Source: a virus
DNA length: 64,000 nt
Strand: one strand, 5' to 3'
IMG/VR virus record: IMGVR_UViG_3300041407_000075
Span: 26,163-90,162 of that record
Shown here piece by piece: positions 30,098 through 47,275 of the stretch (its first letter is position 1; every line of letters starts with the position of its first letter). The notes beneath the pieces were generated by a model. It had not been told where the DNA came from and did no database searches. It saw only the letters and a list, made by a program, of their open reading frames with translations. The position numbers and the translations under genes were made by a program.

Positions 30098-30234
30098 AGA
30101 GATGAATTATTGCGAACGCTACACAGAATCCCAAGCAATCGAATTGGTAGCAGAGTTGAAAGGTGAAGGCTACAAAGCCTACTTCACTAAGAACAATTCC
30201 GACTCTTTCACTGTTCAATATTGGAGCTAAGACT

Positions 30235-30446: not shown

Positions 30447-30449
30447 TGT

Positions 30450-30478
30450 TTGCAAAAGCTTTGTACAAGGTCTAGAAT
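30450..30478 (+). promoter_or_regulatory. sigma70 early promoter
   Basis: TTGCAA-17-TAGAAT. Confidence 0.65.
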
Positions 30479-30513
30479 TACCTTAATGAAACAAACATAC
30501 AGGGGCTCAGAAA

Positions 30514-30762
30514 ATGACCATTCAAACCAAAGACTTCTCCTACTTCGATCAAGGTCTGTTCACTATGTTCATTCCTAACACTAAAGAGGCTGAACAGGCT
30601 TGGAATGAAATGGCTTCGACCACTGATGGTACTGGCAAGGTGCCAACTGTACAGGCTAAGCAGTTTATTTATCAACTGAAGAAAGCAGGTTATACAGTAT
30701 CAAAAGGTAAGAAGCCTTCTATCTCGATTGATGACATTCTTCTTGACGAACTGTTCAACTAA
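30514..30762 (+). CDS. hypothetical early protein
   Basis: Follows the promoter. Confidence 0.7.
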   Translation: MTIQTKDFSYFDQGLFTMFIPNTKEAEQAWNEMASTTDGTGKVPTVQAKQFIYQLKKAGYTVSKGKKPSISIDDILLDELFN

Positions 30763-30944
30763 GGAATACAGCCATGATCATCTCCCTGATAGCTTTCTAC
30801 AAAATCTTCCTTCAAGACAGCCAACCAACTAAAAATAAGCCTATATACCACAAGACGTGGAAAGACGAAGTGGAAGGCTATCCAGCGTCTAGCTATGCTA
30901 AGAGCTTGGAGATGGTTGTTCATTAATTTATTGCAGCCCATTCT

Positions 30945-30998
30945 TACCCTGGTTGCCTGGATAAGAAGATGAACCAGGATGCCTAGGCAACCAGGGTA
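30945..30998. repeat. perfect 14-bp inverted repeat containing CCWGG sites
   Basis: TACCCTGGTTGCCT (30945-58) / AGGCAACCAGGGTA (30985-98). Confidence 0.9.
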
Positions 30999-31043
30999 CA
31001 CCTACCAGGGTGAAAATATCTTTATTTTCTTTTGAAAATTCTC

Positions 31044-31071
31044 TTGACCTGTCCCACCAGGGTGCTACACT
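31044..31071 (+). promoter_or_regulatory. sigma70 early promoter
   Basis: TTGACC-16-TACACT with extended -10 TG and AT-rich UP element. Confidence 0.7.
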
Positions 31072-31126
31072 ACAGACATGAAAGGGAAGAAGTGGAATCC
31101 TCCACACCCTCTCCAGGAGATTCAAA

Positions 31127-31675
31127 ATGTCGAATGTAGCCGTTTCTTTCGCCTCCCTGGTTAAATCCAACAACGGTATGTTCAAGTCTGAAGCTCAGGC
31201 TAAATTCCTTCTGTCTCAATGCCAGGAAGAAAACACCTTTGTTTGCGGCGGCAACGTCTACAACAACTCTTTCACAATTTTCTACATCTGTGACTCCCTG
31301 GGTGTTGTTAAGGTTGAAAAATACCTTCCTAAATCCGGTAAAACTACCACTACCTGGGAACGTCTGACTGCTGATCAATTCCAAGCAAGCCAGGAAGCTA
31401 AAGCGACCTCTAAAGCTCGTGACATCGCTTTGCAAGAAGCCTCGGTTGCTAAGTGGCAAGTCCGCCAGGACGCATTCAACAATGCGCTGGCAGTGGCAAA
31501 GTCTTACATTAAACAAGTTATGATTGAAACTGGTTGCCCTGAAGCAACTGCTCAACGTGCTGTTGATAGCATCATGAACAACCAGGACGACATTAACAAC
31601 AGCATGGAAACCCTGGTTAAATCTTCTGAGTTTGTTAAAGCCTGGGAGGTATACAACAACGAACCAGGAGTGTAA
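31127..31675 (+). CDS. hypothetical early protein (182 aa) with high-expression codon style
   Basis: AGGAGA RBS; own promoter and terminator; rich in AAC/TTC/CTG/TCC codons. Confidence 0.85.
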   Translation: MSNVAVSFASLVKSNNGMFKSEAQAKFLLSQCQEENTFVCGGNVYNNSFTIFYICDSLGVVKVEKYLPKSGKTTTTWERLTADQFQASQEAKATSKARDIALQEASVAKWQVRQDAFNNALAVAKSYIKQVMIETGCPEATAQRAVDSIMNNQDDINNSMETLVKSSEFVKAWEVYNNEPGV

Positions 31676-31696
31676 AAGCTTCCTGAAGAGTCCTAG

Positions 31697-31715
31697 AAGC
31701 CCCGTGAGGGGCTTT
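31697..31715 (+). terminator. intrinsic terminator
   Basis: AAGCCCC-GTGA-GGGGCTT-T. Confidence 0.7.
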
Positions 31716-31804
31716 AATTGTTTATAGGGTATGAGAATGTCTATTCCAGGTAAATTAACCTTCCAGGGGCTACCAGGGACAGTGAACAATTTAAAAGAAA
31801 TACC

Positions 31805-31833
31805 TTTACCTGGTAATTTTCAAAGTCTATAAT
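31805..31833 (+). promoter_or_regulatory. sigma70 early promoter
   Basis: TTTACC-17-TATAAT. Confidence 0.65.
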
Positions 31834-32105
31834 CTATAAACAAACCAGGAGCAGACACCATGAATTATGAAGAAAAGCCCATCATCATCCCTTTCCTTAA
31901 AGTGATCAATGGTATTCAATTAGTGATGTGGGACTACTCAGAGCGTGCTGAGATCTATGAGCAGTTTATTATGATGAGCGAGGACTATGCTGAGTACACG
32001 CCAGTCCGATTCGAAGCTTTGTGAGAATGGATGGATACAGGCAAAGCCTGAATATCCTGTTAGGTTTGAGAAGCTTTAATTAATTACGCTCGGAGTATAA
32101 TAGAG

Positions 32106-32294
32106 ATGACTAATAAAGAATTTGACACTTGGTTTTCTTCATTGACTGACACAGATAAACTGAAGATACTCAGTGAGCAGTGTCAAAGTATCACTTCGAT
32201 GAAAGGAGACACTTATGTGACTTTCGGTTGCAAATGGAACTTAGATTCATTCATTTATCAAGTGATGTATGAGGAGAAAACAGGAAGAGAGTAA
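32106..32294 (+). CDS. hypothetical protein
   Basis: GGAG RBS; last ORF of the plus-strand block. Confidence 0.55.
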   Translation: MTNKEFDTWFSSLTDTDKLKILSEQCQSITSMKGDTYVTFGCKWNLDSFIYQVMYEEKTGRE

Positions 32295-32336
32295 GATATG
32301 CACTAATGCATAAATAATCAATCTAGCAGGGAATTA

Positions 32337-32361
32337 TAAGCCACTCAAATGAGTGGCTTAA
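32337..32361. terminator. palindromic hairpin, possible terminator
   Basis: TAAGCCACTC-AAAT-GAGTGGCTTA. Confidence 0.6.
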
Positions 32362-32993
32362 TGTTATCAAGAGTATTAATACAACACCTTCCAAGTATCC
32401 TTTCTGTTGATACTAACAAATCCCCTCAAAGCCTTGTCCAATCTAGTCTTAATGACTACACAAACTACACTCATTAGTCTACTTTCTAGGCATGTACAGT
32501 ATTATCTAAGTAGTCTCATATGTTAAGCCTGATACCATTTCCCTCCAACTTTCCTCCTGCACCAATTCCTTTCCACCCATCCTAACCACCATCTCTTAGC
32601 AATTTATTGCGTATCCTTTCACACAATCCTCATAATACATTGACATAAGCTAGTGAAGTGTGCTAGTTGTGCAACATAGATTATTATGGTTGACATATGT
32701 GGTCTGTTCAGGGTGACTAGGTGTTTAGAGTAGTTGCTCCATTGAACATAACGTTAAAATCTATGCACACCAAGCAAGCTATCTTGTTACATCCACCTGT
32801 CAGAGTTTATGTCAAGGGTAATATCTTCAGAGGTATTGACCAGATGATTGGGCAGGTAGTTGGCATGATCTTTGTTGCAATATTTTGTTATTTAAGAATG
32901 ATTCGTATTGGGTGAGTCCTTAAGGCGTTAAGCTAATCTGATACCGCGCCAGTGTTTTCAAGGCTTTCAGACCTATTCCATATTTTCTTACAG

Positions 32994-33018
32994 ACAAAAG
33001 AAACCCTCCGAAGAGGGC
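32994..33018 (-). terminator. intrinsic terminator ending the minus-strand block
   Basis: Minus strand CCCTC-TTCG-GAGGG-TTTCTTTTG (cUUCGg loop). Confidence 0.8.
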
Positions 33019-33039
33019 TGTAGTTAATTTTACAGGGGA

Positions 33040-34038
33040 TTAGATATTTCTCACACCACCATGTTCTTCAAAGATATGAATCACAGGTTCTAAATTTGAG
33101 GGGAAGGTAGTCTCAGTATACCCATCAGGCATTTCCTCTTTAGTGATTACCTTTGTAGTTAGGTTATTCAGACAATACCTTTCAGCATCTCTACAGTCTT
33201 TAACTGTTGGATAAGTCCAGACACCATAATTTATAACATCATAAATTGATAGCTGGTTCTGACGTTTAATCCTTTCAGTTGATAGATTTGCAATACCAAA
33301 CTTAATAGCAACTACATCTTCTTTATCCATTAGAAGATTAATATAGGTTTCTTGTTGTCTATTACCACTACAAGCACAAGACCTAACACCCTTATACAAA
33401 CCCACTAAATGTCCTTCACCTAATTCACCACAGTCAGGACAATCCATGTACCAGTATTTCTTATGTCCGTGTTTATCAACTCTTTCACTTCTGGTAAATA
33501 CTGTACCATCAGCATAACATCCAGTGTCCATAAACATTTTAATCATTACAGAGTCATCTTTTCTTTTGTAGTCTCCCATCCTCAAAGCAAAGCATCCCGC
33601 ACAACCTTTGTATCCACCTTTGATAAGAAAGAAACTGATTGTCATAGAAAAGAAATCTCCGTGGTCTGGACACTCCGCTACCACTTTAGTTTTGTTGGCT
33701 GTAGTGAAATCACCATGCCAACCTTTAAAGATTAAACCTCTTTCCACACAAGCTCTATTAACCCTTACTACATACTGCTCTTTAGACCAATTGCACTTAT
33801 CTGTACATCCGCATGGAATACAACCTCTGTTTAGATGGCCTTTACTCATTGCAAACAACCCCTCACCAAATAGTTCAGGGTCTTCTTTGCATACAGAGCA
33901 CTCTACAATATACTTCTTATCGTTAGCATACTTACCATTCCAGCCTACAACCGTTAAGTTTCCAAATACTGTTCCTTCAAACCCATCATATTTCATTACC
34001 CCATCTTCAATCAAGTCTTTCAAACTAGCCATACGCAC
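33040..34038 (-). mobile_element. putative homing endonuclease (Cys-rich repeats plus C-terminal GIY-YIG-like domain)
   Basis: FGNLTV, several CxxC, CPDHG; C-terminal YINL...KFGI...R...E. Confidence 0.7.
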
Positions 34039-34074
34039 TCAACTTAAATTATCTCTATTATACTCCGACCGTAA

Positions 34075-34608
34075 TTACTTACTTCGAAACGCCTGTACAG
34101 CCAACCCATACTCCAGATATTTCCCCTCATCTCTCAGTGCTAATATTTCAGATGGTAGTTCTGTCATTGGTGGGGAATGTAACTTACTCTGTCGTCCTTG
34201 GTAGTAGTCCCTAATAAACTCTCTTTCCACTTCTGTGTTCTCCTTCTCTTCATCAGATATTTTACTTTCATATTCTTGTATTCGATGTCTGATTCCATCA
34301 AGTGCAAATCTAACAGTTTGGGCTAATCGCCTAGCTTGTCTGTCACTCATCTCATATGCAACTTCTCTTGTCTTTACAAGCTCAGAAGTAATTGAATTCA
34401 ACATGAGGCACTTAAACACCAACTTAGGGCTGATATTAACTTGCCCATTGGAAGTACCTGCAACAATGTATACGGCAGCCATAACGGCATCCTCTACAAA
34501 GGCAGGCATCTTTTGTTTGGTTCCCGTATTGAGGGATTCTTTCCAACGGTGTTCTATCAGCCATTCAGCTACAATTACGTTATCCGTTACCTTTGGTAGT
34601 CGTGCCAT
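34075..34608 (-). CDS. hypothetical protein
   Basis: 177-aa ORF on the operon strand. Confidence 0.7.
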   Translation of the reverse strand: MARLPKVTDNVIVAEWLIEHRWKESLNTGTKQKMPAFVEDAVMAAVYIVAGTSNGQVNISPKLVFKCLMLNSITSELVKTREVAYEMSDRQARRLAQTVRFALDGIRHRIQEYESKISDEEKENTEVEREFIRDYYQGRQSKLHSPPMTELPSEILALRDEGKYLEYGLAVQAFRSK

Positions 34609-34771
34609 TAGTTTCCTGTTCTAGTTTAAGTTTATCCAACACTCTGTCTAATCCATCATAATCTTTTTCCAAACCTCTGAACTGTTGATCTAGGAAGTCT
34701 TCGAACAAAGCAATTTCTTTTGTATTACACTCATTAGACGTAATCTCTCCCTCAGAAGTCACATTTTATTC

Positions 34772-34972
34772 CTATTTATTTTCATTAGCCGACGAACGGG
34801 CAATCTTCAAGCTAATAATCTCCGCTCTCATTTCCTTAATCATCTTACTCTGATATTCAGAAAGCTTTAGAGCATCCTGTAGCATCAGTCCGAGTTGTCT
34901 TTGTTCTCCACGTCCTAAATTCTTACGACCAATTGCTTTATTGATTAGGGCTGTTGTTTCTAATGTAATCAT
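34772..34972 (-). CDS. hypothetical protein
   Basis: GGAG RBS. Confidence 0.55.
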   Translation of the reverse strand: MITLETTALINKAIGRKNLGRGEQRQLGLMLQDALKLSEYQSKMIKEMRAEIISLKIARSSANENK

Positions 34973-35322
34973 TTACTCCACCCCACATCAATAAACAGAA
35001 ACCCCTCTTCAACAGAGTGCTCTTCGTGATACTTTATAGCATCTTCCACGTTATCAAATACCTTCACCACATCCCAACGTTCATCATCGTAATCTTTTCT
35101 ATAACAATGTGTCACCATATATCGAACGTCCATCACACCTTATCCTCCCAATTTTGACTCATAGTCAAGCACCCAACTATCATAAGCCTCTACAGGACTT
35201 GTCCCCACTCCACATGCAAGCCACACAGCAGGCCTCATCAGATACCCAGTCCTCTGGTTCATTCTCAATAGGAATTTCACAGACATAAAGTCCTTCTGGT
35301 GTTTTAAGGATTAATGGTTTCA

Positions 35323-35823
35323 CTATACAACCTCCTTCACAGGAACACCATCATAAATCTCCTTGAAATGCCCCCGTATAACCATACGCCTACAAGCTGA
35401 ATACATATAATCACACTCAGCTTGTTTGTTACCAGTAAAAGGTTTATCACCAAACCAACCCGTGTTAGTTGGGAATCCAAACACTTTACTCACCCTCTTT
35501 CCATCAGTCTCTAACAATCCCCATCCAGCAGGAAGCTCTTCAACCCGAATAAGCCCTGTAGGTGTTAGAAAGAATCTCCAATCACCCATACCTAATAGTG
35601 GATCAACTCTAAACTTCTTACGCTTGTCTACTAAGAAGTCTGAACGAGATGTCTTACACTCAATAAGGCAGGACACTCCACTTCTAAATCCAAGACAATC
35701 AGGTTGTTCACCAGTGTTAGTGTAGGCTTTGAATTTATCATGGAACACAACACCGAATGCATTCTTAACTAAGAATTTCTCAGCTAACAGACACAGGTTG
35801 TCGTGTGTAAGGAGTTCGGTCAT
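35323..35823 (-). CDS. PD-(D/E)XK nuclease-like protein (MmcB-related)
   Basis: GEQPD...IECKTSRSDF..D..K, GDWRFF, ELPAGWGL. Confidence 0.7.
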   Translation of the reverse strand: MTELLTHDNLCLLAEKFLVKNAFGVVFHDKFKAYTNTGEQPDCLGFRSGVSCLIECKTSRSDFLVDKRKKFRVDPLLGMGDWRFFLTPTGLIRVEELPAGWGLLETDGKRVSKVFGFPTNTGWFGDKPFTGNKQAECDYMYSACRRMVIRGHFKEIYDGVPVKEVV

Positions 35824-35970
35824 TCCTCTTCTTCCTTATCATCAATATCTTCCATAAACGCCCTCAACACTCTCTTTTGATGTTCTGGTGAAAGATATTT
35901 AGGCAATAGTTCTACTTTTAGTTCTTCCTTGAGTGCTTTCAATTCCTTATCAATATTCTTCATACGATCT

Positions 35971-36285
35971 TCAATTGTTTGGTTCATATTTAACTTCCCC
36001 CAGAATTCTATCATATTTGTCCACAATATTAGGGTCATACCAATCTATGCTATTTGGATCACTTTGCGTACAGGATTTACATTTAAGAATCTTATCTCCA
36101 AACCTCACAACACTGCCTTCAGGGTATACTGTCATAGCATCCCAGTAAGGATATTTGGCTTTCTGATTCTCTTTCAATTCCTTCAGGCACATCTTACCAT
36201 ACCTTACACTGTCGATAGGTGTGGATTCTTTATTACACTTATTCTTCTCCCTAGCCCCACATGAGCAGCGTTCAGGGTTTGTCAT
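35971..36285 (-). CDS. hypothetical Cys-rich protein
   Basis: ERCSCGAREKNKC N-terminus. Confidence 0.6.
   Translation of the reverse strand: MTNPERCSCGAREKNKCNKESTPIDSVRYGKMCLKELKENQKAKYPYWDAMTVYPEGSVVRFGDKILKCKSCTQSDPNSIDWYDPNIVDKYDRILGEVKYEPNN
36234..36273. repeat. 40-bp direct repeat, copy 1
   Basis: TACACTTATTCTTCTCCCTAGCCCCACATGAGCAGCGTTC, identical at 37196-37235. Confidence 0.9.
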
Positions 36286-36595
36286 GATTTGATCACATCC
36301 TTCTTAAGTTTCATACATTTAGTGCAACGATGTACAGATGTCATATAAATAATATACTTACCACGACTGTCCATAGTGTCAAACTTAGTAAGAAACTGAT
36401 ACTCGTGTTCACAACCGTAGAACCAGCGCTTTAACCAAAGATACATTTAATCTTCCTCCAAGTTAATCCATTCACACCAACCACCCGTCTTAATATCCGT
36501 AAGTCTATACCAAATACTGCCATCATCAAGGATTGTGGTCTGGATGTCAATGGTAATAGTTGAGATATTTCGTTTAGGGAATTGCAGAATGTTAG

Positions 36596-36820
36596 TCATC
36601 TAGGCCACTCCGTACACATCATTCGATTCTTCATAAGACTCTTCTCCAACAGCTTCTGATCTTCACTCATAAACAACTCATCAAACCAATTAAGTTTCTT
36701 CTGTGGGTGTGGGTAAGGGATTGACATACTTGTGTACCAATCCACAAGCTCCCATTCGTTCACCCGTGTGTAACCTCTCAGTGCCCTCCTGGGCGGTGGT
36801 TTAGGTGGTTCTAGTTTCAT
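36596..36820 (-). CDS. hypothetical protein
   Basis: Coupled ORF. Confidence 0.55.
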   Translation of the reverse strand: MKLEPPKPPPRRALRGYTRVNEWELVDWYTSMSIPYPHPQKKLNWFDELFMSEDQKLLEKSLMKNRMMCTEWPR

Positions 36821-37101
36821 TAAGGTTTCCTCGGTGGTGCAGGAGGCGCTTTAGGACGACTCTTGACAAACCACTCTTTAACTTTAGTGTTAACATCCCC
36901 TTTAGAAGAGCAGCAATCCCCACAAGAATACATCCAAGGACGATCTACTTGCATCTGAAACCTAAATCCATTTTCGCGTCTAAAGTCTTTCTTACAAAAG
37001 AAGCATTCTTTCCAGAAGAACAGTCCGTAGTGATTGTAGATGTCATTACCAACTACATTTGAATAACCATAGTTAGTATTAGGGTCTTTTTCACGTTTCA
37101 T
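36820..37101 (-). CDS. hypothetical Zn-binding protein
   Basis: CFFC ... CGDC. Confidence 0.65.
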   Translation of the reverse strand: MKREKDPNTNYGYSNVVGNDIYNHYGLFFWKECFFCKKDFRRENGFRFQMQVDRPWMYSCGDCCSSKGDVNTKVKEWFVKSRPKAPPAPPRKP

Positions 37102-37247
37102 CTCTTCTCTCCATTAACAACACCGTTGCGTATCCCAATATCTTCCATACCTCCCTTCAAACACATCTTCCCCGTATTGTGTTCGCTCTCCTTGCTACAC
37201 TTATTCTTCTCCCTAGCCCCACATGAGCAGCGTTCTTCTATATTCAT
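37098..37247 (-). CDS. 49-aa paralogue of the 35971-36285 N-terminus
   Basis: Translated by hand: MNIEERCSCGAREKNKCSKE...GKMCLK; ATGA overlaps on both sides. Confidence 0.55.
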   Translation of the reverse strand: MNIEERCSCGAREKNKCSKESEHNTGKMCLKGGMEDIGIRNGVVNGEKR

Positions 37248-37648
37248 CGTTTCCCCACCTCATGTAGTCCATCACACATATACTGAATAGAGGCTAGAGT
37301 TTCTACCACAGAGTTATAATCTTCCTTACATTGACAATCATCATAACAGCAACTGTGAGTTTCTGAATACCAGAATACACCACCAACATCCACTGCATTG
37401 TATTTATCAGCTTGTAAATATGCAGCCACTTCCTCCCAACTTTTGAAATCACTCCTATTAATCTTCTCCATCGTCTTCGTTATACCAATCTTTTTGAACA
37501 TCTCGGAGTCACATGAATTTATGATGTTGTATTCTTGGGTTGAGTGTTGAAGACCAATCGCATTAACTTCATCTGGTGTCATATCCCGAAATTTTTCAAA
37601 AGTTTTATCAATAGCCCTACTGAGTTTATCAGAAATGTTGAACAACAT
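37244..37648 (-). CDS. hypothetical protein
   Basis: GGAGG RBS. Confidence 0.65.
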   Translation of the reverse strand: MLFNISDKLSRAIDKTFEKFRDMTPDEVNAIGLQHSTQEYNIINSCDSEMFKKIGITKTMEKINRSDFKSWEEVAAYLQADKYNAVDVGGVFWYSETHSCCYDDCQCKEDYNSVVETLASIQYMCDGLHEVGKR

Positions 37649-37649
37649 T

Positions 37650-37880
37650 TTATTCCTCCAATATAAGTTCTACAATTGCCGTGGCTTCAGATAGTGTGTC
37701 CATGGCAACCCAATCTTCTTTGTCTCCAGCACCCATCTTATAACACATCCACAGATATTCAACCCTGTACAGTGCATCTTTAACACCTGCATTATATTCT
37801 TCTGTGTCCTTGTATGGGCTAGGTTCTTTATCCGTAGAGAATTGCCACAAATCCTTAACTCTCTGCTTTACCTCATCCAT
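37650..37880 (-). CDS. hypothetical protein
   Basis: Coupled ORF. Confidence 0.55.
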   Translation of the reverse strand: MDEVKQRVKDLWQFSTDKEPSPYKDTEEYNAGVKDALYRVEYLWMCYKMGAGDKEDWVAMDTLSEATAIVELILEE

Positions 37881-38266
37881 ACCTTCTCTCCATTAACTAT
37901 ACCAAAATGTTCCCACAGAATACCACACATCATCTCATAAGCAACAGGAGATTTCTCTTTCATCTTAGCCCTTCCTGTTCCAATGCCGTCTTCAGGGAAT
38001 ACAATCACTTTGTCCTGACCAAGCTTCCACAGTTCACGTAGAGATACCTTTACAGCTTCAAGTTCATCTGGTTTGTCACTAAAGAATGCCCAATCATCCC
38101 AAGAGGGATATCGTTTAGTTGGAATACCAAAGGCGTTAGGCTCATCTCTGATGATTGCTTGACCACCTTTGCCGAAGTGCTTTAGGTTATCTCCGTAGAC
38201 CCATATCTTTTCTGGATAACGTCTACACATTGGAGGTGAAAGTATTTTAGCGTATTCAATTATCAT
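37868..38266 (-). CDS. conserved phage protein (VYGDNL..G.GGQA family)
   Basis: IWVYGDN, GGQAIIR.EPNAFGIPTK, FPEDGIGTGRA. Confidence 0.7.
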   Translation of the reverse strand: MIIEYAKILSPPMCRRYPEKIWVYGDNLKHFGKGGQAIIRDEPNAFGIPTKRYPSWDDWAFFSDKPDELEAVKVSLRELWKLGQDKVIVFPEDGIGTGRAKMKEKSPVAYEMMCGILWEHFGIVNGEKVWMR

Positions 38267-39106
38267 TTAACCCTCCAAAAACTTAGTAACAATTGGAACA
38301 ACCCCCTCCAAACTCGTAAGAAGGAAGAGATGACCTTCGCCCTCAAACACATACATCTCAGAATTAGGGATTAGCTTCGCTAATATTTTCATATTCCGCA
38401 AGTCTATCAGAGGATCATCATCACCAGCAAGGACTAATGTTGGTTGTTTAATACTGTGCAAATACCACAACGATGACCACCACATCAAAGCTCCTTGCTG
38501 ATAGGCATAACCCAACTGACTGTGTTTAAACTCTCCCTTACTCTGTGACATACGCGAAGCATGCTCAACAGCCAGTTCTTTGTTTCCCCTAAAATGGCCC
38601 CCATAGATATCTGCTGCAATCGAAGCTGCGTAGTTGCTATCTGTATAGCGTTTAGGCGAGGACATCAAACTAAGCACTTTCATACTTGGTGGTATGGCTG
38701 TAACACCGGCACAAGTCGCTGCAAGGATTAGTTTCTTACAACGATTTGGATACCGGTAAGCAAATTCCTGACTGGTGAATCCTCCCCACGATAGTCCTAG
38801 TACAAATACTTGCCCGTAGTTCAAAAAGTCCAGCATTTCTGAGATTGTTCTACACAGGCCACTAAAACGATATGGGAACAGAGGTGTAGAACTGCCAGCA
38901 ACTCCCGGGTAATCGAATGTAATGATTTCTAAGTCTGGTTGTGCAAGGTGCATAGCCTCAACAAAGGGAAATAACAGTTCTAGCGATGCACCTATGCCTG
39001 TACAAAGCAGAAGAGGAACACTGTTCGCTTTTCCCAGCTTAATAGATACACGAAGGGTCTGATTGCCGTTCATTGTTATTGTTCTAGTATTCATTTGAAT
39101 GGCCAT
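38267..39106 (-). CDS. phaZ: intracellular mcl-poly(3-hydroxyalkanoate) depolymerase
   Basis: PLLL.TGIGASLEL.FPF, FD.PGV.GSSTP..PYRF.GL, lipase box GLSWGG, CKKLILAAT, LVLAGDDDPLI, GHLFL: colinear with Pseudomonas PhaZ as I recall it. Confidence 0.92.
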   Translation of the reverse strand: MAIQMNTRTITMNGNQTLRVSIKLGKANSVPLLLCTGIGASLELLFPFVEAMHLAQPDLEIITFDYPGVAGSSTPLFPYRFSGLCRTISEMLDFLNYGQVFVLGLSWGGFTSQEFAYRYPNRCKKLILAATCAGVTAIPPSMKVLSLMSSPKRYTDSNYAASIAADIYGGHFRGNKELAVEHASRMSQSKGEFKHSQLGYAYQQGALMWWSSLWYLHSIKQPTLVLAGDDDPLIDLRNMKILAKLIPNSEMYVFEGEGHLFLLTSLEGVVPIVTKFLEG

Positions 39107-39282
39107 TTATAAACAATCCTCTCTAAGTCAATAATCCTATTATCCAAATATTCAATCATCTGCTGTTGGTCGTAAATACTGCCAACCAAAGATTTAATTA
39201 TATCATCACCATTTCTCTTATCTGTCCATATACATCCATTAGTTGCACATATGTAGTTGTGTATAAACTCTTCTCTAGTCAT
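39091..39282 (-). CDS. hypothetical protein
   Basis: Coupled ORF. Confidence 0.5.
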   Translation of the reverse strand: MTREEFIHNYICATNGCIWTDKRNGDDIIKSLVGSIYDQQQMIEYLDNRIIDLERIVYKWPFK

Positions 39283-39626
39283 GCATTCTCCCCTCTAAAA
39301 ACTCTTCCAATATCTCACTAACATTCACAAACCGATAGTTTACATACTGACTAGCAGCAAATTCATCTGGAAAGCACACCACACAAGATTTGTGCTCATC
39401 TGACAAGAACCGGATGAAGTCTTTGATCACTTCTCTGTCATGGGAGTATTCTTTGGTCATTTCAGTTCCTTCCACATCAAATAAGAGGAGAAAGGTATAC
39501 TCACAATCCACAAAAGAGAGAATGATATGCTCCTTACAAAGTCAACCTTAACTTTACATCTGTATGAATCTAATACTTCGTGGTAAAACATCACCAAACT
39601 AATGGCTAAATAAACTATAAGAATTG

Positions 39627-39932
39627 TCATGATTTAAATTCTCCGGTAGCAACAAGTATTTTAGCAACTGCTTCAGCATCTAACCAAATCTCTGTGTCTT
39701 CAGGAAGAGTTTCAATCTGAATGTTTGCACCAAGTAGCTTGTTCCAAGGATAATACATACACATGTGCACCCAATAATCGTTATTACTAGACCAAGGTGT
39801 ATTGGTAGTTTTCTTATTGAAGAATCCACCAGTTGTCTCTTGTACTGAAGAGTAAGTCATTTTCAAACGGTGATAATTGACCACTAAAGGCAGACGTTGC
39901 TTAAGCCAACCTATTGTAAGTTTAGTTTTCAT
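39627..39932 (-). CDS. hypothetical protein
   Basis: AGGAG RBS. Confidence 0.65.
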   Translation of the reverse strand: MKTKLTIGWLKQRLPLVVNYHRLKMTYSSVQETTGGFFNKKTTNTPWSSNNDYWVHMCMYYPWNKLLGANIQIETLPEDTEIWLDAEAVAKILVATGEFKS

Positions 39933-39941
39933 TCGTTTCTC

Positions 39942-40253
39942 CTATTGAGTAATATACTTACCACAGCGGATAGAGTACAAATCATCCCTACTAATTTTCC
40001 GTGGTGTCAACCCTGCAACCTTTTCACGCAACACTTGAAAACCACAACCCCACCCCTCTTCTGACATGCCACAGTCTAGACATACACGCATTGGTGCAAG
40101 AGCATTGAAGAATTCACTTGGTTGGTAGTCACATTCAGCTATGTTTGTGTGACTACATTTATTTTGTACATAATTAATAACAGCAGACAACTCACTTTGA
40201 GCTACTTTCAGGTTTTCAATGGAACTATTGATGTCTTCATTTGTCAGTTTCAA
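39942..40253 (-). CDS. hypothetical Zn-binding protein
   Basis: CSH ... RVCLDCG. Confidence 0.65.
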   Translation of the reverse strand: MKLTNEDINSSIENLKVAQSELSAVINYVQNKCSHTNIAECDYQPSEFFNALAPMRVCLDCGMSEEGWGCGFQVLREKVAGLTPRKISRDDLYSIRCGKYITQ

Positions 40254-40255
40254 TT

Positions 40256-40732
40256 TTATTTCTCCTCAAAATATTTGTTATATTTAACAACTGTTGAAAT
40301 ATATTTATTTAAATTACATGTCTTTGTATGTTTGGCTGCATAGCCCGTGTATGAATACCAGCATTCCTTTAAGAATTGGTTATCCTTGCCTCTCCCCATC
40401 CTGTTTGAGAACTTAGAAGCTGTAGCCTCCTCTGCTAACAAAGTATACAACTCCGTAGTACCCCACTTATAATCTTGTCCAAGTGCTATACAATGTTTGT
40501 TCTGATATTGCAGTGTTCGTTTTGCTACAAAATGTCCAACCTCATGAAACAAGATTGCCCAGAAGTGTTTGGATAAAATAGAGATCTCAATCCACTCATA
40601 TCTGAACTCATTCCCTGTAATTCTCCAGCAGATAGCTCCGTGCTCTCCTGTCCATTTTATCTTGTAATCGAGTCCGTATTTTTTGCATACATACCTGAGA
40701 GCTAGAATTCTTTTAATCATGATAACCTCCAT
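40256..40732 (-). CDS. HExxH metallopeptidase-like protein
   Basis: LFHEVGH and downstream EEATA. Confidence 0.6.
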   Translation of the reverse strand: MEVIMIKRILALRYVCKKYGLDYKIKWTGEHGAICWRITGNEFRYEWIEISILSKHFWAILFHEVGHFVAKRTLQYQNKHCIALGQDYKWGTTELYTLLAEEATASKFSNRMGRGKDNQFLKECWYSYTGYAAKHTKTCNLNKYISTVVKYNKYFEEK

Positions 40733-40841
40733 AAATGTTTGTAGGGAGTTTTATACCCTGAAAGAGAGTCTAGCAACCTCAGACATACTACGCAAGCTCT
40801 TTTCAGTTAATTCGTCTCCAGATGCATAAAACTACGCCAAC

Positions 40842-41201
40842 TTAGCCCCTTTCCATCGCAAATTCGATGCACAAACCAACCATACCAAGAGCAGTCCACT
40901 TGGAATTGGCCTTTACAAGTTGATTTAGGTTAGAAAAGCCTGTACTTGAGATGAAATCATTGATATCAATACCAAGTTTCTTGCAAGCACGTCGTACATA
41001 TTTGGTATCTGAAGCTGGCTTCCACCACATTGGCAGGCGGATACTAAAGTCTGAAGCCTTCTCACGCCAGAATTGCTCATCTGCATAGGAGACATTTAGG
41101 TGCTCCTTTGCGTATTCTTGGTCAGCAATCCTTTTAAGGCGTACTTCCTCTCGTTGACTGTCCGACATCGGTTTGAAGTCTGGATTTCCTTTCTTAATCA
41201 T
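40842..41201 (-). CDS. hypothetical protein
   Basis: ATGA overlap. Confidence 0.65.
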   Translation of the reverse strand: MIKKGNPDFKPMSDSQREEVRLKRIADQEYAKEHLNVSYADEQFWREKASDFSIRLPMWWKPASDTKYVRRACKKLGIDINDFISSTGFSNLNQLVKANSKWTALGMVGLCIEFAMERG

Positions 41202-41395
41202 TTTAATTTTCCCTCTAAGTGAGCAAGCTTCTCTTCAAGTACGATAGTGTAACAGAAAAACTCTTCCAATGCCGCATTCAATCTGAAAGATTCCGAATCC
41301 TTATTCTTCTTGTAATCTAAGAATGCCGGAAACCAAGGTTCTTTTCCAAAGTGGTATTCATACTCCCACTTGATTCTCTGTTTTACTAAGTTCAC
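41198..41395 (-). CDS. hypothetical protein
   Basis: Coupled ORF. Confidence 0.55.
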   Translation of the reverse strand: MNLVKQRIKWEYEYHFGKEPWFPAFLDYKKNKDSESFRLNAALEEFFCYTIVLEEKLAHLEGKLK

Positions 41396-41802
41396 TCAAA
41401 TTCCTCAATGATCATCTTCTTACGTTGTACGAATTGATTAAAAATGATTTCTTCCAATTCTGCATTGCCCCAATCAAATTCATCAGGAACATTCAACACA
41501 GAGATAGTTTTGTCGAGACAAGAAATCAAAGTTTTCTCTTCTGCATCCAAATCAAGCACATTATCCGAGTTTACAAACACAATCTCTTCCGCCCAATGAA
41601 TCAAAGCTTCTGTGATTGGAATCAGGGCGAAGTCTTTACAGCTACCACATGCCCGTGTGTTTAGACCGAGACGTTTGTGGATAGTGTTAGCCGCTGTTGG
41701 GCTTCTCAATAATCCAGCACTACACACGAACAAGACTTTCTTTGCCGTCCCTTGGAACTGATTATGTACGTTAGCCAACTGATTACGATTACCCCTGATC
41801 AT
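41392..41802 (-). CDS. low-molecular-weight protein tyrosine phosphatase-like
   Basis: KVLFVCSAGLLRSPTA (CX5RS), LIHWAEEI, LNVPD. Confidence 0.85.
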   Translation of the reverse strand: MIRGNRNQLANVHNQFQGTAKKVLFVCSAGLLRSPTAANTIHKRLGLNTRACGSCKDFALIPITEALIHWAEEIVFVNSDNVLDLDAEEKTLISCLDKTISVLNVPDEFDWGNAELEEIIFNQFVQRKKMIIEEFE

Positions 41803-41983
41803 TTTCTTTCCCCTTCAACATTTTAATATAATCTAGAACAGCTTGTGTCTCGTCCATAGCGTATTGAATTAATAGATTCTGTTCAATACCAATTGCTTTA
41901 GAAATACGGTTGCATCTGTTATGGCAGCGCTTCAAGTCTGAATGAAGTAGTTCCAGTTGATGTGTCAATTTCTCTTTATTCAA
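41789..41983 (-). CDS. hypothetical protein
   Basis: Coupled ORF. Confidence 0.5.
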   Translation of the reverse strand: MNKEKLTHQLELLHSDLKRCHNRCNRISKAIGIEQNLLIQYAMDETQAVLDYIKMLKGKENDQG

Positions 41984-42503
41984 TTCCCAACTCCTTCTTA
42001 GCTTTCTCTACAATATCCTTAGCCTGTGCATACAGCGTAGGATCACCTTCAGTCAGCACTTCTAGCAACAACTCCTTCTCTTTAATGTAAACCTTTGCAA
42101 AATTTTTATCGTGCTCAAGAATTGATTTACTGTTTGAGATAAGGTCTGCAAGTTTAATTGTTTTACACTCAGGGGACTGCATAGCTGTGTGGTAGCGGTC
42201 AATCTCCTTACGCTTTGCACGATTACCATCTTCAGGTTTAGATACATCTGTCAACCCTGAGACTAAATCCCCAATGTAATGACCAAACATGCGATCAATT
42301 GTCCACATATCTACTTGTGTATCTTCCACGCAGTCGTGCAGGTATGCCGCTGCAATCATGCCGGGGGTTCCGCCAACACTCTTCACAATAGCAGCCACCT
42401 CGGCTGGGTGAAAGAAATAAGGCTCATTAGTATATTTCCTACGTTGTCCTACAGCTTGATGTGCCCCTACAGAAAAATAATAAGCTAGTTGTTCGATGTC
42501 CAT
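41976..42503 (-). CDS. HD-domain (p)ppGpp hydrolase (small alarmone hydrolase, Mesh1/SpoT-like)
   Basis: AH....Q.RK...EPY..HP..VA, AAYLHDCVED, IKLADLISN. Confidence 0.88.
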   Translation of the reverse strand: MDIEQLAYYFSVGAHQAVGQRRKYTNEPYFFHPAEVAAIVKSVGGTPGMIAAAYLHDCVEDTQVDMWTIDRMFGHYIGDLVSGLTDVSKPEDGNRAKRKEIDRYHTAMQSPECKTIKLADLISNSKSILEHDKNFAKVYIKEKELLLEVLTEGDPTLYAQAKDIVEKAKKELGIE

Positions 42504-42580
42504 AAAACCTCCTATTTAATTTGTAAATCATTATGGCAAAAGAAAAGCCCCAGTACAAGAGTACCAGAGCTTATAAATTT

Positions 42581-42772
42581 CTATTGATCAAAGATTGTTG
42601 ATGCATTTTCTTCATGGTATGGTTTAATCATTTCATCAACCTCACGACTACTCCAACCACGACCAATGATGATTTCGTGATACTTACCTTTCTCAGAATG
42701 AAACTTTGGATTGAACTCGCACGCGTACATCCATGAAGAATCGGAGAACATATAGATAATTGCTCTGTCCAT
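42581..42772 (-). CDS. hypothetical protein
   Basis: In-operon ORF. Confidence 0.5.
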   Translation of the reverse strand: MDRAIIYMFSDSSWMYACEFNPKFHSEKGKYHEIIIGRGWSSREVDEMIKPYHEENASTIFDQ

Positions 42773-42775
42773 AAG

Positions 42776-43204
42776 TCACCCCAAATACTTGTTCGAAAGA
42801 AATAGTTTAGAATAACTCTTCAGTGTAAATTCCACACGATGGTCTTGAACCAGAATAGTCTTCGTAGACTTACACAGTTGCAGCTTCAACCGGACAAGGA
42901 TACGTGCTGCCTTAGCTTTAGCAATTTGATAATCATTAAATGACCACAAGCTGAGCTTTTCTGGTGGTTTACCAAATACACACTTCACACTGTTTCCGTT
43001 ATAAAGCTTTAGGGCGCTAACAAAACCAATAATGTTACGACCTTTATTTGAATGATGGGATGAGTGAAAGAATGGGTTGGACCATAATGTTCCTTCAACA
43101 AATTCATAGTTAAGACACTTCATAAACTCACGAAGGGTGAATAGTTGTAAAGATTTAGTGTCTACGATTTCGTCTGCTAACCATTGAGACTGATTACTGT
43201 GCAT
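42776..43204 (-). CDS. hypothetical protein (start probably MHSNQ at 43204)
   Basis: AGGAG RBS before the ATG at 43204. Confidence 0.6.
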   Translation of the reverse strand: MHSNQSQWLADEIVDTKSLQLFTLREFMKCLNYEFVEGTLWSNPFFHSSHHSNKGRNIIGFVSALKLYNGNSVKCVFGKPPEKLSLWSFNDYQIAKAKAARILVRLKLQLCKSTKTILVQDHRVEFTLKSYSKLFLSNKYLG

Positions 43205-43700
43205 TTTCTTCTCCTTTATATTGTACAACTTCAACACCAAAGTCTTCCAGCATCTCAATACCCTTGGTATCCCTATATTCCTCTAAGTATACAACCTTTT
43301 TAATCCCACTGGAAGCAATAATTGAACTACAAGTCGCACAGGGTGACAACGTTACAAAAATTGTAGCCCCTTCTGCACTAACACCTTCCTTTAGCATCTT
43401 ACATAGCGAGTTAATTTCCGAGTGGACAACTCCTTCCAAAGTTTTAAGTTTGTAATACCCAAGCCCATCTTGGTAAGGATAAGTTTCATGGAATGTTTCA
43501 ACATCCAACCAAGCCCCTGCACCTTCGCTGTAAATCTTCTCTTCACAAGTGTTGCTCATTCCGGGAAGCGTACCGTTGTATCCTACATAAAGACCACGAC
43601 TTTTAGTTAGAATGCATGAACCCACTTTCTTTCGGATTGCGTGACTATCTTGTGCAGCTCGTTTAGCAATGTCCATGTAAAGGGAGTATTCTTTAGTCAT
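43194..43700 (-). CDS. dCMP deaminase
   Basis: KVGSCI, GYNG, HSEIN, TLSPCATC. Confidence 0.9.
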   Translation of the reverse strand: MTKEYSLYMDIAKRAAQDSHAIRKKVGSCILTKSRGLYVGYNGTLPGMSNTCEEKIYSEGAGAWLDVETFHETYPYQDGLGYYKLKTLEGVVHSEINSLCKMLKEGVSAEGATIFVTLSPCATCSSIIASSGIKKVVYLEEYRDTKGIEMLEDFGVEVVQYKGEENAQ

Positions 43701-44011
43701 TTCTTCCTAGTCTCTGTGCCAGTTACCGAATATCCACCACCTTCAAGTTTGCTGACTGTCTTTTGTAACTTACTCGCGATGACGGAATATTTACCCTTGA
43801 TTCCAGTCAAATCATCCACATAATCTTGTGCCACTTGACGGCTTGAGGTATGAATGAATGCAAAATCTCCCATTGCATTCTTATAGAAAAAGGTGCTTGG
43901 TGGTAAAAAGTCGATATCGCTGAATTCTTTAAAGCTTACCATTGTTATTTTGAGTTCTTTCTTCTTCTCACTCGTAGTCATAATCATATCCATCTTCAGG
44001 GTAAGGGCCAT
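43697..44011 (-). CDS. hypothetical protein
   Basis: ATGA overlap. Confidence 0.6.
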   Translation of the reverse strand: MALTLKMDMIMTTSEKKKELKITMVSFKEFSDIDFLPPSTFFYKNAMGDFAFIHTSSRQVAQDYVDDLTGIKGKYSVIASKLQKTVSKLEGGGYSVTGTETRKK

Positions 44012-44425
44012 CCCATTCTTCCGTTTCTAAGTCTTCAGATTCTAATTCTTCATAAAACCTTTCAAGTTCTGTATCCAAGAAAGAATCATAAGCTGAATAT
44101 GCACTACTCATAATCCAATACCTCAGCTACAGCACTTACTAAGTCCTCCCCAAGTGCGTGGCTAGCTCCTTCTAAATCATGTTGCAACCAGCTTGAAATA
44201 GTAGACTCTTCGAGTTCATCATTAGCGTATTCTACAAACTGATTCATACTACTCGGTGCTCCTCAATAAAGTAACTAATTCCAGCAAGACTACCTGAGTC
44301 AAACAACTCTAGCTCAAGAGATGTCTGCAAAGCCATTGCCTTAGCTTGTGTGTCAAACAATCCCATATTCTCACGGTGTCCGAAGTCAACTTTAACTAGC
44401 ATGTATAATGCCATTACATTTCTCC

Positions 44426-45142
44426 TTAATTTAAAGTAAACAACTTTTCAATACCTTTCTTTGAACCTGTATCTTTTGTCAAAGAATTATTAACTTCTTT
44501 TGACCAGACACAAACAAAGTCATCTGGCATCCAATACTCAGAAATAAATACTTTATGACCTTCTTTATGTCGATCACGACACCAAGTATAAAACTTATCA
44601 TGATCAAAGTCATCTTTATACTTGGTAGTTCCGACATACGGTGGATCGCAGTAAATTGTACAAGGCTTTGTGAAGCTAAAATAAGCAAGATCTAGATCAA
44701 ATACAGATGTATTTACAAAGTGTACGCCTTCTAGGTTTTTAATTTGTTTTATCATACCTCTATAGGATTCCATTGCATAATCTCGCTTACCAATGGAATC
44801 TCGTCGGTATCCACCAAACCACTTACCACCAAAAGACATTGAAAATCCAATATATCCTGTGAGAGCTTTATTGAAGTCTTTGTTATCTTTAACAAAGTTA
44901 TAGTCTGCCTCCGTTACCTTCTCAGGTGGAGTCCAGCCTTTACGTATAGCTTGCCACATTGCTATGAGATATTCATGTACATCGCAACCTGTGCGCTTCG
45001 GTGCAATAATTGGATCAACTTTATCAATCATATTAGCCCCACCAACAAAAGGTTCAACATACCACATATCTGGCGTGTGATCTTTCAAGATAATTGGTAG
45101 TAGTTCTTTTGCGTGACGTGCTTTAGATCCCATGTATTTCAT
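44426..45142 (-). CDS. DNA adenine methyltransferase (D12/Dam-like class)
   Basis: MKYMGSK, YVEPFVGG, YCDPPY, FISEY. Confidence 0.9.
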   Translation of the reverse strand: MKYMGSKARHAKELLPIILKDHTPDMWYVEPFVGGANMIDKVDPIIAPKRTGCDVHEYLIAMWQAIRKGWTPPEKVTEADYNFVKDNKDFNKALTGYIGFSMSFGGKWFGGYRRDSIGKRDYAMESYRGMIKQIKNLEGVHFVNTSVFDLDLAYFSFTKPCTIYCDPPYVGTTKYKDDFDHDKFYTWCRDRHKEGHKVFISEYWMPDDFVCVWSKEVNNSLTKDTGSKKGIEKLFTLN

Positions 45143-45571
45143 ATTAATACTCTACCTTAAATTCATAATTTAAAGATTGTAGAAATCGTTTCTCAGGTCC
45201 ATCCATCCATCCCCAGTAAATCGATTGCTCACCAATAACCCATTGTTTATCTAGGTATCTGTTGATGTAAGCTTCTAAATCTTGTACAAGCTCTGATTTA
45301 CGCTCATAACTCAGAGCTTTTGTAGCTACTTCTTCTTTCAGAATCATACTATTCCCCTTGTGCGTATTCCAAATCGTACTCTAAGTGCCATTGAGGGTCC
45401 ACATCGAAACAGTGTTCAACGATTGCCAGATAATCTTCATATCGTTCATCGTAATCTAGCTCCTTCATTCTTCCTCCTCAGAATTCTCTGCCTTTTCCTG
45501 TGCAGCAAGGTCAGCTTGTTGTTCTGCGAGTAGTTCTTCGATTTCCTGTGCGCTAATCATAGTGTTTCTCC

Positions 45572-45781
45572 TTAACGTTTAACAGTAAATTTAGCAGTAT
45601 CTTTGCAAGTAAACATCCAGTTGTCAATGTCTACTTTAGAATATTCGATACCTCCATTCTTGGAACATACTTCATTTAGTATTTTAACTGTTTCGTTTGC
45701 ATCGAAACGAAATGTTGTGCAGTTCACACTGACAAATGCAACAAAGATCATGCAAACAAACCACGCTGTAATTTCACCCAT
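45572..45781 (-). CDS. small membrane-anchored protein
   Basis: N-terminal hydrophobic segment; AGGAG RBS. Confidence 0.55.
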   Translation of the reverse strand: MGEITAWFVCMIFVAFVSVNCTTFRFDANETVKILNEVCSKNGGIEYSKVDIDNWMFTCKDTAKFTVKR

Positions 45782-45847
45782 TTAATTCTCCTTTGTTTGG
45801 TTTTGGTGTACCCATTGTAAGCAGTACACCACATCTGTGCAAGCTCT

Positions 45848-46624
45848 TTATTCAGTTCTCTCGATTACTTTTGCAGCTTTAGTGCGATTTGCTTTCTTTT
45901 CAGCAGCATCTCGAGCAGCGAGAGCCTTCTTTACACCCAATTCTACAGCATCTGCAATGATTTCAGCAAGACTTGGCATTTCATCAAAGTCTTCGTCATC
46001 TTCCAGCTCAGAAAGAGCTTCAAGTTGGGCATTTTTAGGGCAATCTGCTTGGCCACAATTACAAGGTTGTGCTGCTCGATATTCTTTGAAACTTTGCAGA
46101 CGTTCCATAAGTTCATCACCATCAAACAGCAGGTCTACGCCTTTTAGAGCCTCAAGAATTTCTTGCTCGTTCAAAAACCCACTGTACGTGTTCCGCAAAG
46201 AGCGTTCATTCAGTTTCTTATTGAAAGCAGCAGTATTGTAAACTTGAGCCTCGTGCCCGTATGTACCATAAGAAAATCCGTGTACAAGGAAAGTAGACAT
46301 TTCATCAACTTCCCAGTCATCAGCCGCCAAGCAGATAGCTGTACCTTCGCTCGCCGTCCCCATACCAATTACAGCTACAATAGTTGCACCACAACGATTC
46401 ATATGCTGGATGTATTGATGGCCTACTGATACAGATCCACCCGGTGACTGAATCCATAAGCGGATTAGGTCTTCTGGACCAGCTTGGTGGTATACAGCAA
46501 AGTGTTCCAAGTATTCATCAGCATCGTGTGAGATTTCACCGTGAAGGTATAGGTTATATTCATTACTTACGAATGTTTTACTAATAAGCTGGCTTGGTTT
46601 GTTAACCATTGAAATATCGGACAT
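45848..46624 (-). CDS. ClpP-like serine protease
   Basis: IQSPGGSV, TASEG (catalytic Ser), FLVH. Confidence 0.8.
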   Translation of the reverse strand: MSDISMVNKPSQLISKTFVSNEYNLYLHGEISHDADEYLEHFAVYHQAGPEDLIRLWIQSPGGSVSVGHQYIQHMNRCGATIVAVIGMGTASEGTAICLAADDWEVDEMSTFLVHGFSYGTYGHEAQVYNTAAFNKKLNERSLRNTYSGFLNEQEILEALKGVDLLFDGDELMERLQSFKEYRAAQPCNCGQADCPKNAQLEALSELEDDEDFDEMPSLAEIIADAVELGVKKALAARDAAEKKANRTKAAKVIERTE

Positions 46625-46627
46625 TAT

Positions 46628-47263: not shown

Positions 47264-47275
47264 ATTATCTCCTAT

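Follow-up and report, generated by a model that had tools for sequence, protein, structure and literature searches.

A phage-borne PhaZ-family gene related to the intracellular poly(3-hydroxyalkanoate) depolymerases of Pseudomonas

Could a bacteriophage draw on the poly(3-hydroxyalkanoate) (PHA) that its host has stored? The question arises from one gene in a stretch of 64,000 nucleotides (nt), here called the window, which comprises bases 26163-90162 of the 90,162-bp virus record IMGVR_UViG_3300041407_000075 in IMG/VR, a record of an uncultured soil phage with a CheckV completeness estimate of 100%. An earlier note on this DNA had assigned an open reading frame (ORF) at 38267..39106, on the minus strand, to the PHA depolymerases (PhaZ) and proposed that it fuels the infection of starved cells. 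We found the full-length ORF precisely as claimed, with an ATG start and a product of 279 amino acids (aa), and our analysis confirmed that it belongs to the PhaZ family, is truly carried by the phage and is maintained by selection. The comparisons reported below suggest that the phage may tap the PHA store of its host during infection.

Family membership was evident from profile searches. The window PhaZ scored 313.3 bits (E 1.4e-93) against the NCBIfam family TIGR02240 (poly(3-hydroxyalkanoate) depolymerase), for which the curated equivalog cut-off is 250.6 bits, and the second-best NCBIfam family reached 80 bits. It also matched Pfam Abhydrolase_1 (106 bits) and the esterase/lipase family phrog_789 (100.2 bits, E 2.4e-28), the latter match being weaker and less specific than that to TIGR02240. 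When two Pseudomonas genomes were scanned with TIGR02240, their true PhaZ proteins scored 610-619 bits and the next-best hydrolase at most 87 bits. Because the non-PhaZ hydrolases of Pseudomonas reach no further than this, 313 bits is well beyond generic alpha/beta-hydrolase similarity. A wide gap in score thus separates PhaZ from the other hydrolases, and the window protein lies with PhaZ, yet well under the pseudomonad orthologs. The same was observed for its viral relatives described below: 36 of 58 copies were aligned and scanned one by one, and all 36 matched TIGR02240 at E <= 1e-74.

We also observed that the catalytic triad is intact. The window PhaZ contains the motifs GLSWGG (residues 104-109), GDDDP (228-232) and GHLF (258-261), and its Ser106, Asp231 and His259 align with Ser102, Asp221 and His248, which form the catalytic triad of PhaZKT, the enzyme of Pseudomonas putida KT2440/KT2442, as described in an excerpt of PMC12504323. 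The PhaZ-specific blocks and the Ser-Asp-His triad named in the earlier note were therefore all present. All 53 phage rows of our alignment retain the triad (and all 22 Pseudomonas rows the serine), and 66 alignment columns are invariant over the phage and Pseudomonas rows together. An AlphaFold2 model built with 34 homologs was confident (predicted local distance difference test score, pLDDT, 90.7; predicted template modelling score, pTM, 0.91) and showed helices, inserted into the alpha/beta core at about residues 142-207, that form a lid over the active site. A Foldseek search with this model returned alpha/beta hydrolases only, at template modelling (TM) scores of at least 0.8. The best matches were 6eb3 and 8v16, metagenomic esterases with 28-29% identity, followed by a polyhydroxybutyrate (PHB) depolymerase of Bacillus thuringiensis. 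We found no solved structure of a PhaZ acting on medium-chain-length (mcl) PHA in the PDB, and the best matches are esterases of such low identity, so the structure search does not discriminate between the two kinds of enzyme.

The gene resides in a phage genome. The record encodes a DNA polymerase, a primase/helicase, TerL, a portal protein and a head maturation protease, and phaZ is one of many small non-structural genes that follow closely on one another in a long run on the minus strand. The 63-aa ORF upstream and the start of phaZ share 16 nt, which include the stop codon of the former. Downstream, a gene for a DUF7831 protein begins with an ATG directly after the phaZ stop; the DUF7831 gene is predicted to be translationally coupled to phaZ. 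A bona fide viral genome with viral genes on both flanks is one of the two features that we looked for in an auxiliary metabolic gene (AMG). The guanine-plus-cytosine (GC) content of phaZ is 43.5%, compared with 40.9% for the phage genome and 61-65% for phaZ at four Pseudomonas loci. We also examined a DNA run labelled as rhizosphere metagenome, the only public run that we found (no RNA run was listed) and possibly the record's own source. Read depth in this run was 18.7-31.8 in 30 of 30 bins of positions 30000-48000, and a single contig (38075-39440) covered both phaZ junctions with 0 differences. An assembly chimera or host contamination, a concern raised by the earlier note, is contradicted and ruled out by this junction-spanning contig, the even depth, the phage-like GC, the absence of phaC and the synteny described below. 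The earlier note's other statements on context, namely that the gene is embedded in a phage operon, is AT-rich like the phage and has no phaC neighbours, all stood.

Relatives of the window PhaZ were numerous among viral sequences. A word-indexed protein search returned 2380 proteins at E <= 1e-10; the best 120 of these were 54-93% identical, 10 of them were labelled poly(3-hydroxyalkanoate) depolymerase by JGI, the others had no name, and contigs of 80-92 kb carried many of them. When IMG/VR was scanned under the guidance of a profile, relatives with 49-91% identity were located on 57 viral contigs, the names of which contain 25 different dataset numbers by our own count. No phaC was present in the flanks fetched for these 57 loci, whereas phaC adjoined phaZ in all 80 of the best 80 bacterial matches. 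At one Pseudomonas locus, the flanking genes were identified as class II PHA synthases (TIGR01839, 1039 and 1050 bits), which agrees with the placement of Pseudomonas phaZ between phaC1 and phaC2 given in the earlier note. These 80 bacterial matches, taken from one genome per species, were all from pseudomonads (Pseudomonas, Metapseudomonas, Ectopseudomonas and one 'gamma proteobacterium L18') and were 51-55% identical to the window protein. The TIGR02240 cut-off was exceeded in 4 of 400 genomes sampled evenly from the same bacterial class. Among 50,697 deposited phage records, a close homolog was found in the Ralstonia jumbo phages RP12 and RP31 only (45% identity).

The viral copies occur in diverse surroundings. 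Clustering of 58 loci by their ORFs other than phaZ yielded 13 separate flank contexts, the largest of which comprised 29 loci with 51-60% GC; the context of the window comprised 13 loci with 40-42% GC. Nine loci stood in flank contexts of their own, three of them on contigs of 228-307 kb. These jumbo-sized contigs (loci L011, 284 kb; L014, 229 kb; and L048, 307 kb), which have terminal repeats or completeness estimates of 100%, carry a PhaZ of the phage clade in flanks unrelated to those of the window.

Phylogenetic analysis placed the window protein beside the Pseudomonas enzymes. We built a quick tree of 108 rows and a careful tree of 53 chosen rows, leaving out the partial copy L056 and four viral copies identical to others; the bacterial rows, likewise chosen, numbered 22 (21 of the 80 loci and L142) and were accompanied by 29 chosen representatives of 255-330 aa. 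The IMG/VR viral copies and Pseudomonas PhaZ formed one clade (SH-aLRT support 99 in the quick tree; 100/100 in the careful tree). This clade was divided into a shallow group of Pseudomonas copies (98; 100/98) and, on the other side, the viral copies (81; 94/83), which 95% of bootstrap trees recovered as monophyletic. The window grouped with L002 (100/98) and then with L055 (99/95), inside a clade of phages with 40% GC (100/99). The RP12 protein fell outside the phage-plus-Pseudomonas clade, among the other representatives, which indicates a separate acquisition. From the phage-Pseudomonas node, the branch length summed by hand in the careful tree was about 1.22 changes per site to the window and 0.31 to P. 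putida, and mean core identity was 0.66 among phage copies compared with 0.91 among Pseudomonas copies. The phylogeny that the earlier note had proposed as a check thus grouped the protein with Pseudomonas PhaZ and away from generic esterases in two trees. A generic esterase by ancestry is ruled out by the score gap, by both trees and by the TIGR02240 matches of all 36 copies scanned. Nor is there support for the idea that the high-GC phages captured the gene recently from Pseudomonas, as every viral copy lies on the phage side of the tree. The tree points to a sister relation, from which no direction of transfer follows; the economical reading would be that phages took the gene from an ancestral pseudomonad.

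We found that the phage copies evolve under purifying selection. Of 18 phage pairs tried, 15 had a finite rate of synonymous change (dS), and in these the Nei-Gojobori ratio of nonsynonymous to synonymous change (dN/dS) was 0.038-0.143, although two of the 15 pairs had a dS near 3 and are unreliable. The window and L002 gave a dN/dS of 0.117 at a dS of 0.43. Two Pseudomonas pairs gave 0.074 and 0.156, and this similarity indicates that constraint on the phage copies is as strong as on the bacterial ones. In viruses, then, purifying selection acts on this homolog of an enzyme of cellular metabolism, and this is the other feature that we looked for in an AMG.

What, then, might the protein do? 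We consider an intracellular mcl-PHA depolymerase that acts as an AMG to be the best explanation, which we hold with modest confidence and which rests on homology. An ancestral gene would have been exchanged between a pseudomonad-like cell and a phage, after which phaZ would have spread through unrelated phages in swappable early modules. PhaZ would be co-translated with its small neighbours in the non-structural arm and made in the host cytoplasm; this location is suggested by an N-terminus in which we read no signal-like stretch. Ser106, Asp231 and His259 would most likely cleave the ester bonds in mcl-PHA granules of the host and release 3-hydroxyalkanoic acids. From these acids, the fatty-acid pathway of the host would supply acetyl-CoA and reducing power, with which the phage would replicate in cells that are short of nutrients but loaded with PHA. 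We infer the substrate, the timing, the host and the benefit to the phage. A pseudomonad host is supported indirectly by the sister relation of the enzymes, by the rarity of TIGR02240 matches outside pseudomonads, by the rhizosphere label and by the nearest cultured phage, the P. putida phage phiPMW, which is 42% identical in TerL, 46% in the portal protein, 44% in the protease and 57-60% in the ribonucleotide reductase subunits, and has 44.7% GC over its first 50 kb.

Several features of the enzyme, and of the distribution and surroundings of its gene that follow, weigh against this reading. The lid of the window protein has 66 residues compared with 60 in PhaZKT, with a 6-residue insertion beside the position of Ser184. 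The hinge reads YAYQQG, where PhaZKT has YYWQLF (190-195), a motif that is invariant in 22 of 22 Pseudomonas rows and variable among phages. In the loop at residues 35-39, CTGIG replaces FNGIG, such that Thr36 is the equivalent of Asn35, and the C-terminal tail is absent. This tail has 16-21 residues in the Pseudomonas rows and is replaced by 2-4 residues in 37 of 53 phage rows. Identity to Pseudomonas is 0.51 in the lid and 0.66 in the core. According to the excerpt of PMC12504323, the lid of PhaZKT (133-192) is essential, and the enzyme is inactivated by deletion of FNGIG (34-38) or YYWQLF as well as by a point mutation of Asn-35 to an unspecified residue (citing de Eugenio 2008). The same excerpt describes a PhaZKT mutant, S184F, with increased esterase activity and a 16-fold decrease in depolymerase activity.

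These differences could mean that the phage protein is a PhaZ-derived esterase, the activity of which has moved to some other ester inside the cell (for example lipids, acylated metabolites, or molecules used in signalling or defence), so that its name records ancestry. We regard this as rather unlikely, but as deserving serious consideration. In its favour, divergence is greatest in the lid and in the hinge, threonine takes the place of Asn35 in the window's subclade, and S184F illustrates how PhaZKT can gain esterase activity while nearly losing depolymerase activity. Moreover, phrog_789 and the RefSeq record of the RP12 protein label such proteins as esterase/lipase, the top solved structural matches are metagenomic esterases, and the branch to the phage protein is about four times that to P. 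putida. By contrast, every copy scanned scores at the level of TIGR02240, the lid has not been shortened and its conservation among phage copies (0.61) comes close to that of the core (0.66), and Asn35 is retained in 50 of 53 phage rows. In addition, the phage clade is nearest to the only characterized intracellular mcl-PHA depolymerases, and the neighbouring genes point to no other substrate. The CTGIG variant is restricted to the window, L002 and L055. Since threonine is common to these three copies, and synonymous sites are saturated between the window and L055, it has persisted under selection; it appears compatible with a selected function, whichever function that is.

The gene is also an accessory one. 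We found phaZ in an identical slot in L002-L010 and L055, with neighbours that ranged from absent to 98% identical, although the TerL proteins of these carriers were 36-54% identical to that of the window; in L002, PhaZ is 91% and TerL 45% identical. However, phaZ was present in 0 of 12 TerL-related records (45-98% TerL identity), 6 of which were at least 99% complete, one of these 6 having 98% TerL identity. A repeat scan with a positive control detected known carriers at 323-331 bits and gave no match in three complete phaZ-less relatives. The relative with 98% TerL identity (G404; L155 and L165) keeps the gene order of the early arm, but its proteins there are 33-60% identical, its DNA is barely alignable, and both phaZ and the neighbours of phaZ are missing. 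The window's terminase gene (59520-61028, plus strand) matches that of G404 at 98% identity despite the diverged early arm. Near-identical packaging genes combined with a diverged early arm indicate that non-structural modules have been exchanged wholesale between phages, and the absence of phaZ from the nearest TerL relatives indicates that it is an accessory that travels with the exchangeable early module. The records without it rule out phaZ as a core gene of this phage lineage, and the earlier note's implication that it is a stable part of the phage did not hold. It appears to be useful enough for conservation where present, but dispensable.

Three negative results bear on the same reading. 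We found no PhaZ in cultured Pseudomonas phages among the 50,697 phage records, and we recognized no enzyme that would activate or oxidize the released monomers among the phage ORFs scanned. A search for a host link in the DNA of 401 Pseudomonas-family genomes gave only short matches that were at chance level or lay in phaZ motifs: they occurred in 20 genomes, were 28-131 nt long, and consisted of phaZ motif stretches, one 27/28 match and one stretch of 38-48 nt, with no match of spacer quality. The stretch of 38-48 nt, at 48833-48880 of the window, matched 11 of the 401 genomes at 83-87%, and at the one locus that we read it lay in a bacterial frame that encodes the same short helical word, EALKAAENAL. 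In all likelihood the resemblance arose by chance and is no host link.

Two further explanations concern what the gene does for the phage. It might be a functionless passenger, captured recently from a host and heading for loss, or an assembly chimera. The lack of the gene in the nearest relatives and the metagenomic origin of the record, for which the sole run found is probably its own source, could be taken in this sense. We consider this very improbable, because the GC content has fully ameliorated to that of the phage, the frame has stayed intact under the selection measured against L002 and with saturated dS to the next relatives, the gene occupies one slot in about 10 independently assembled contigs, and the uniform depth and junction-spanning contig are accompanied by no adjacent phaC or other bacterial gene. 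Alternatively, the enzyme may hydrolyse PHA for a benefit other than fuel, in that the clearing of bulky granules, or of proteins bound to them, could make replication, assembly or lysis easier, or could act with alarmone-hydrolase-like and PhoH-like genes to reset the starvation physiology of the host. A gene with the HD_4 hydrolase domain of RelA/SpoT and a PhoH-like gene are indeed found in the same arm. Among 17 related phage records, HD_4 is present in 4 of 11 phaZ carriers and in 0 of 6 phaZ-less relatives. This association is weak, however (one-sided Fisher p ~0.14 by hand calculation, too few records for a conclusion), most phaZ carriers have no HD_4, and the sequence offers nothing that separates such a benefit from fuel supply. 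We therefore view a benefit other than fuel as improbable.

A more specific proposal, to which we give little credence, is that the phage PhaZ clade represents a deregulated depolymerase, with a remodelled hinge and no C-terminal tail, that would strip granules regardless of host control. In phages of the window's kind, together with the alarmone-hydrolase-like gene and PhoH, it would form an early 'starvation-override' module for lytic phages in dormant, PHA-loaded rhizosphere pseudomonads.

The coordinates of phaZ, of its predicted functional residues and of features in its vicinity are listed in Table 1.

Table 1. Positions in the window of phaZ, its predicted functional elements and nearby features
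Feature	Coordinates	Strand	Basis or remark
phaZ, PhaZ-family (TIGR02240) alpha/beta-hydrolase with lid	38267..39106	-	ORF, family match, AlphaFold2 model, tree
Ser106 codon, predicted nucleophile in GLSWGG (PhaZKT Ser102)	38789..38791	-	alignment
Asp231 codon (PhaZKT Asp221)	38414..38416	-	alignment
His259 codon (PhaZKT His248)	38330..38332	-	alignment
Lid, residues ~137-202 (PhaZKT lid 133-192)	38501..38698	-	alignment; limits from PMC12504323; model helices 142-207
Loop CTGIG, residues 35-39 (PhaZKT FNGIG 34-38)	38990..39004	-	alignment
DUF7831 gene, ATG directly after phaZ stop	37868..38266	-	GGAGGG Shine-Dalgarno in phaZ 3' end
63-aa ORF upstream of phaZ	39091..39282	-	no family match
HD_4 gene, 175 aa, RelA/SpoT N-terminal hydrolase domain only	41976..42503	-	Pfam HD_4 57.5 bits; TIGR00691 positions 1-129
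Terminator-like hairpin just upstream of HD_4 start	42545..42572	-	pattern match; 3 in region compared with 5.5 expected by chance
dCMP deaminase	43194-43700	-	family match
D12-class adenine (Dam-type) methyltransferase	44426-45142	-	family match, N-terminal
ClpP-like protein	45848-46624	-	29.5 bits
PhoH-like protein	47276-48055	-	158.6 bits

The genes for the PhoH-like and ClpP-like proteins, the methyltransferase and the dCMP deaminase all lie in the non-structural arm that carries phaZ. The DUF7831 gene is also found directly downstream of phaZ in L002, L007 and L008. The DUF7831 family is nearly all viral in ESM Atlas clusters, and our search for a structure or paper on it found none. The HD_4 gene lies 2.9 kb upstream of phaZ in one gene string, and its product resembles small alarmone ((p)ppGpp) hydrolases, of which it would be a phage version. 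The hairpin upstream of this gene is a possible 5' limit of the phaZ transcription unit. A promoter pattern scan of the region gave 19 sites, compared with 27.2 expected, and is therefore uninformative.

We also noted other ORFs in the window. A 158-aa ORF (40256-40732, minus strand) had no family match but contains HEVGH, which by eye is zinc-metallopeptidase-like. A 136-aa ORF (41392-41802, minus strand), also without a family match, contains VCSAGLLRS (C-x5-R-S, found by eye), a motif that we take to be reminiscent of low-molecular-weight phosphatases. Between the early arm and the packaging genes, a 462-aa protein (55474-56862, plus strand) has a C-terminal GDSL/SGNH lipase-acylhydrolase domain (40.2 bits) and is possibly a second phage hydrolase, one that would act on surface polysaccharide. 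A homing/HNH endonuclease gene (phrog_655; 58602-59519, plus strand) ends right before the TerL gene.

Comparison with described systems places the window gene within a known enzyme family and in a setting of its own. Like PhaZKT, the window PhaZ exceeds the TIGR02240 cut-off, has the aligned triad and an alpha/beta fold with a helical lid, and lacks a signal-like N-terminus; it is 52% identical to a P. putida copy, and the Pseudomonas enzymes are its nearest clade in the tree. Unlike PhaZKT, it is encoded by a phage and away from phaC1 and phaC2, although that position is a trait of the bacterial operon rather than of the enzyme. It also belongs to a separate and much deeper clade, has the lower GC content given above, and differs in the loop, hinge, lid length and C-terminal tail.

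Among phages, PhiRP12-ORF269 and PhiRP31-ORF266 are listed as 'poly(3-hydroxyalkanoate) depolymerase' in a gene inventory that forms part of Matsui et al. 2017 (PMC5468394). The RP12 protein resembles the window PhaZ in being phage-borne, in its TIGR02240 score (291 bits) and in its 45% identity, and its gene has no phaC nearby in the annotated stretch; by contrast, RP12 and RP31 are phiKZ-like jumbo phages of Ralstonia. A parallel to the proposed mechanism comes from Bdellovibrio bacteriovorus, the PhaZBd of which degrades the mcl-PHA of its prey such that the predator gains carbon and energy (PMC7174725, excerpt). Here too an invader uses its own depolymerase to consume the PHA store of its victim. 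PhaZBd, however, is described as an extracellular-like enzyme and belongs to a cellular predator, and the likeness is one of described role. A PHB depolymerase in a Gloeobacter prophage has been proposed as an AMG candidate in a 2026 preprint (PMC13317609, excerpt). That case resembles the window in being a viral PHA/PHB depolymerase viewed as an AMG, but, compared by description only, it differs in that the enzyme acts on short-chain PHB, the prophage is cyanobacterial and the proposed benefit is to the lysogen. Among the papers that our literature searches listed, screened by title or abstract, we found no published analysis of a phage mcl-PHA depolymerase. The earlier note's statement that there is no characterized phage example thus holds within the literature searched, but the annotated RP12 and RP31 proteins and the prophage PHB candidate are already in print.

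The excerpt of PMC12504323 describes the intracellular mobilization of mcl-PHA as exclusive to Pseudomonas. In our data, this enzyme family appears as a deep, diverse, phage-only lineage on 57 viral contigs, and the window gene is one of a sizeable undescribed phage clade within the known PhaZ family and a candidate phage AMG with good support. If these enzymes are active, phages would have access to the principal store of carbon and energy in starved pseudomonads of the soil, which would bear on phage replication when hosts lack nutrients and on rhizosphere carbon turnover. Active phage copies would also provide natural lid variants of an enzyme relevant to bioplastic recycling. Should the starvation-override proposal prove true, the productivity of phages in soil would depend strongly, and in a way so far overlooked, on PHA stores.

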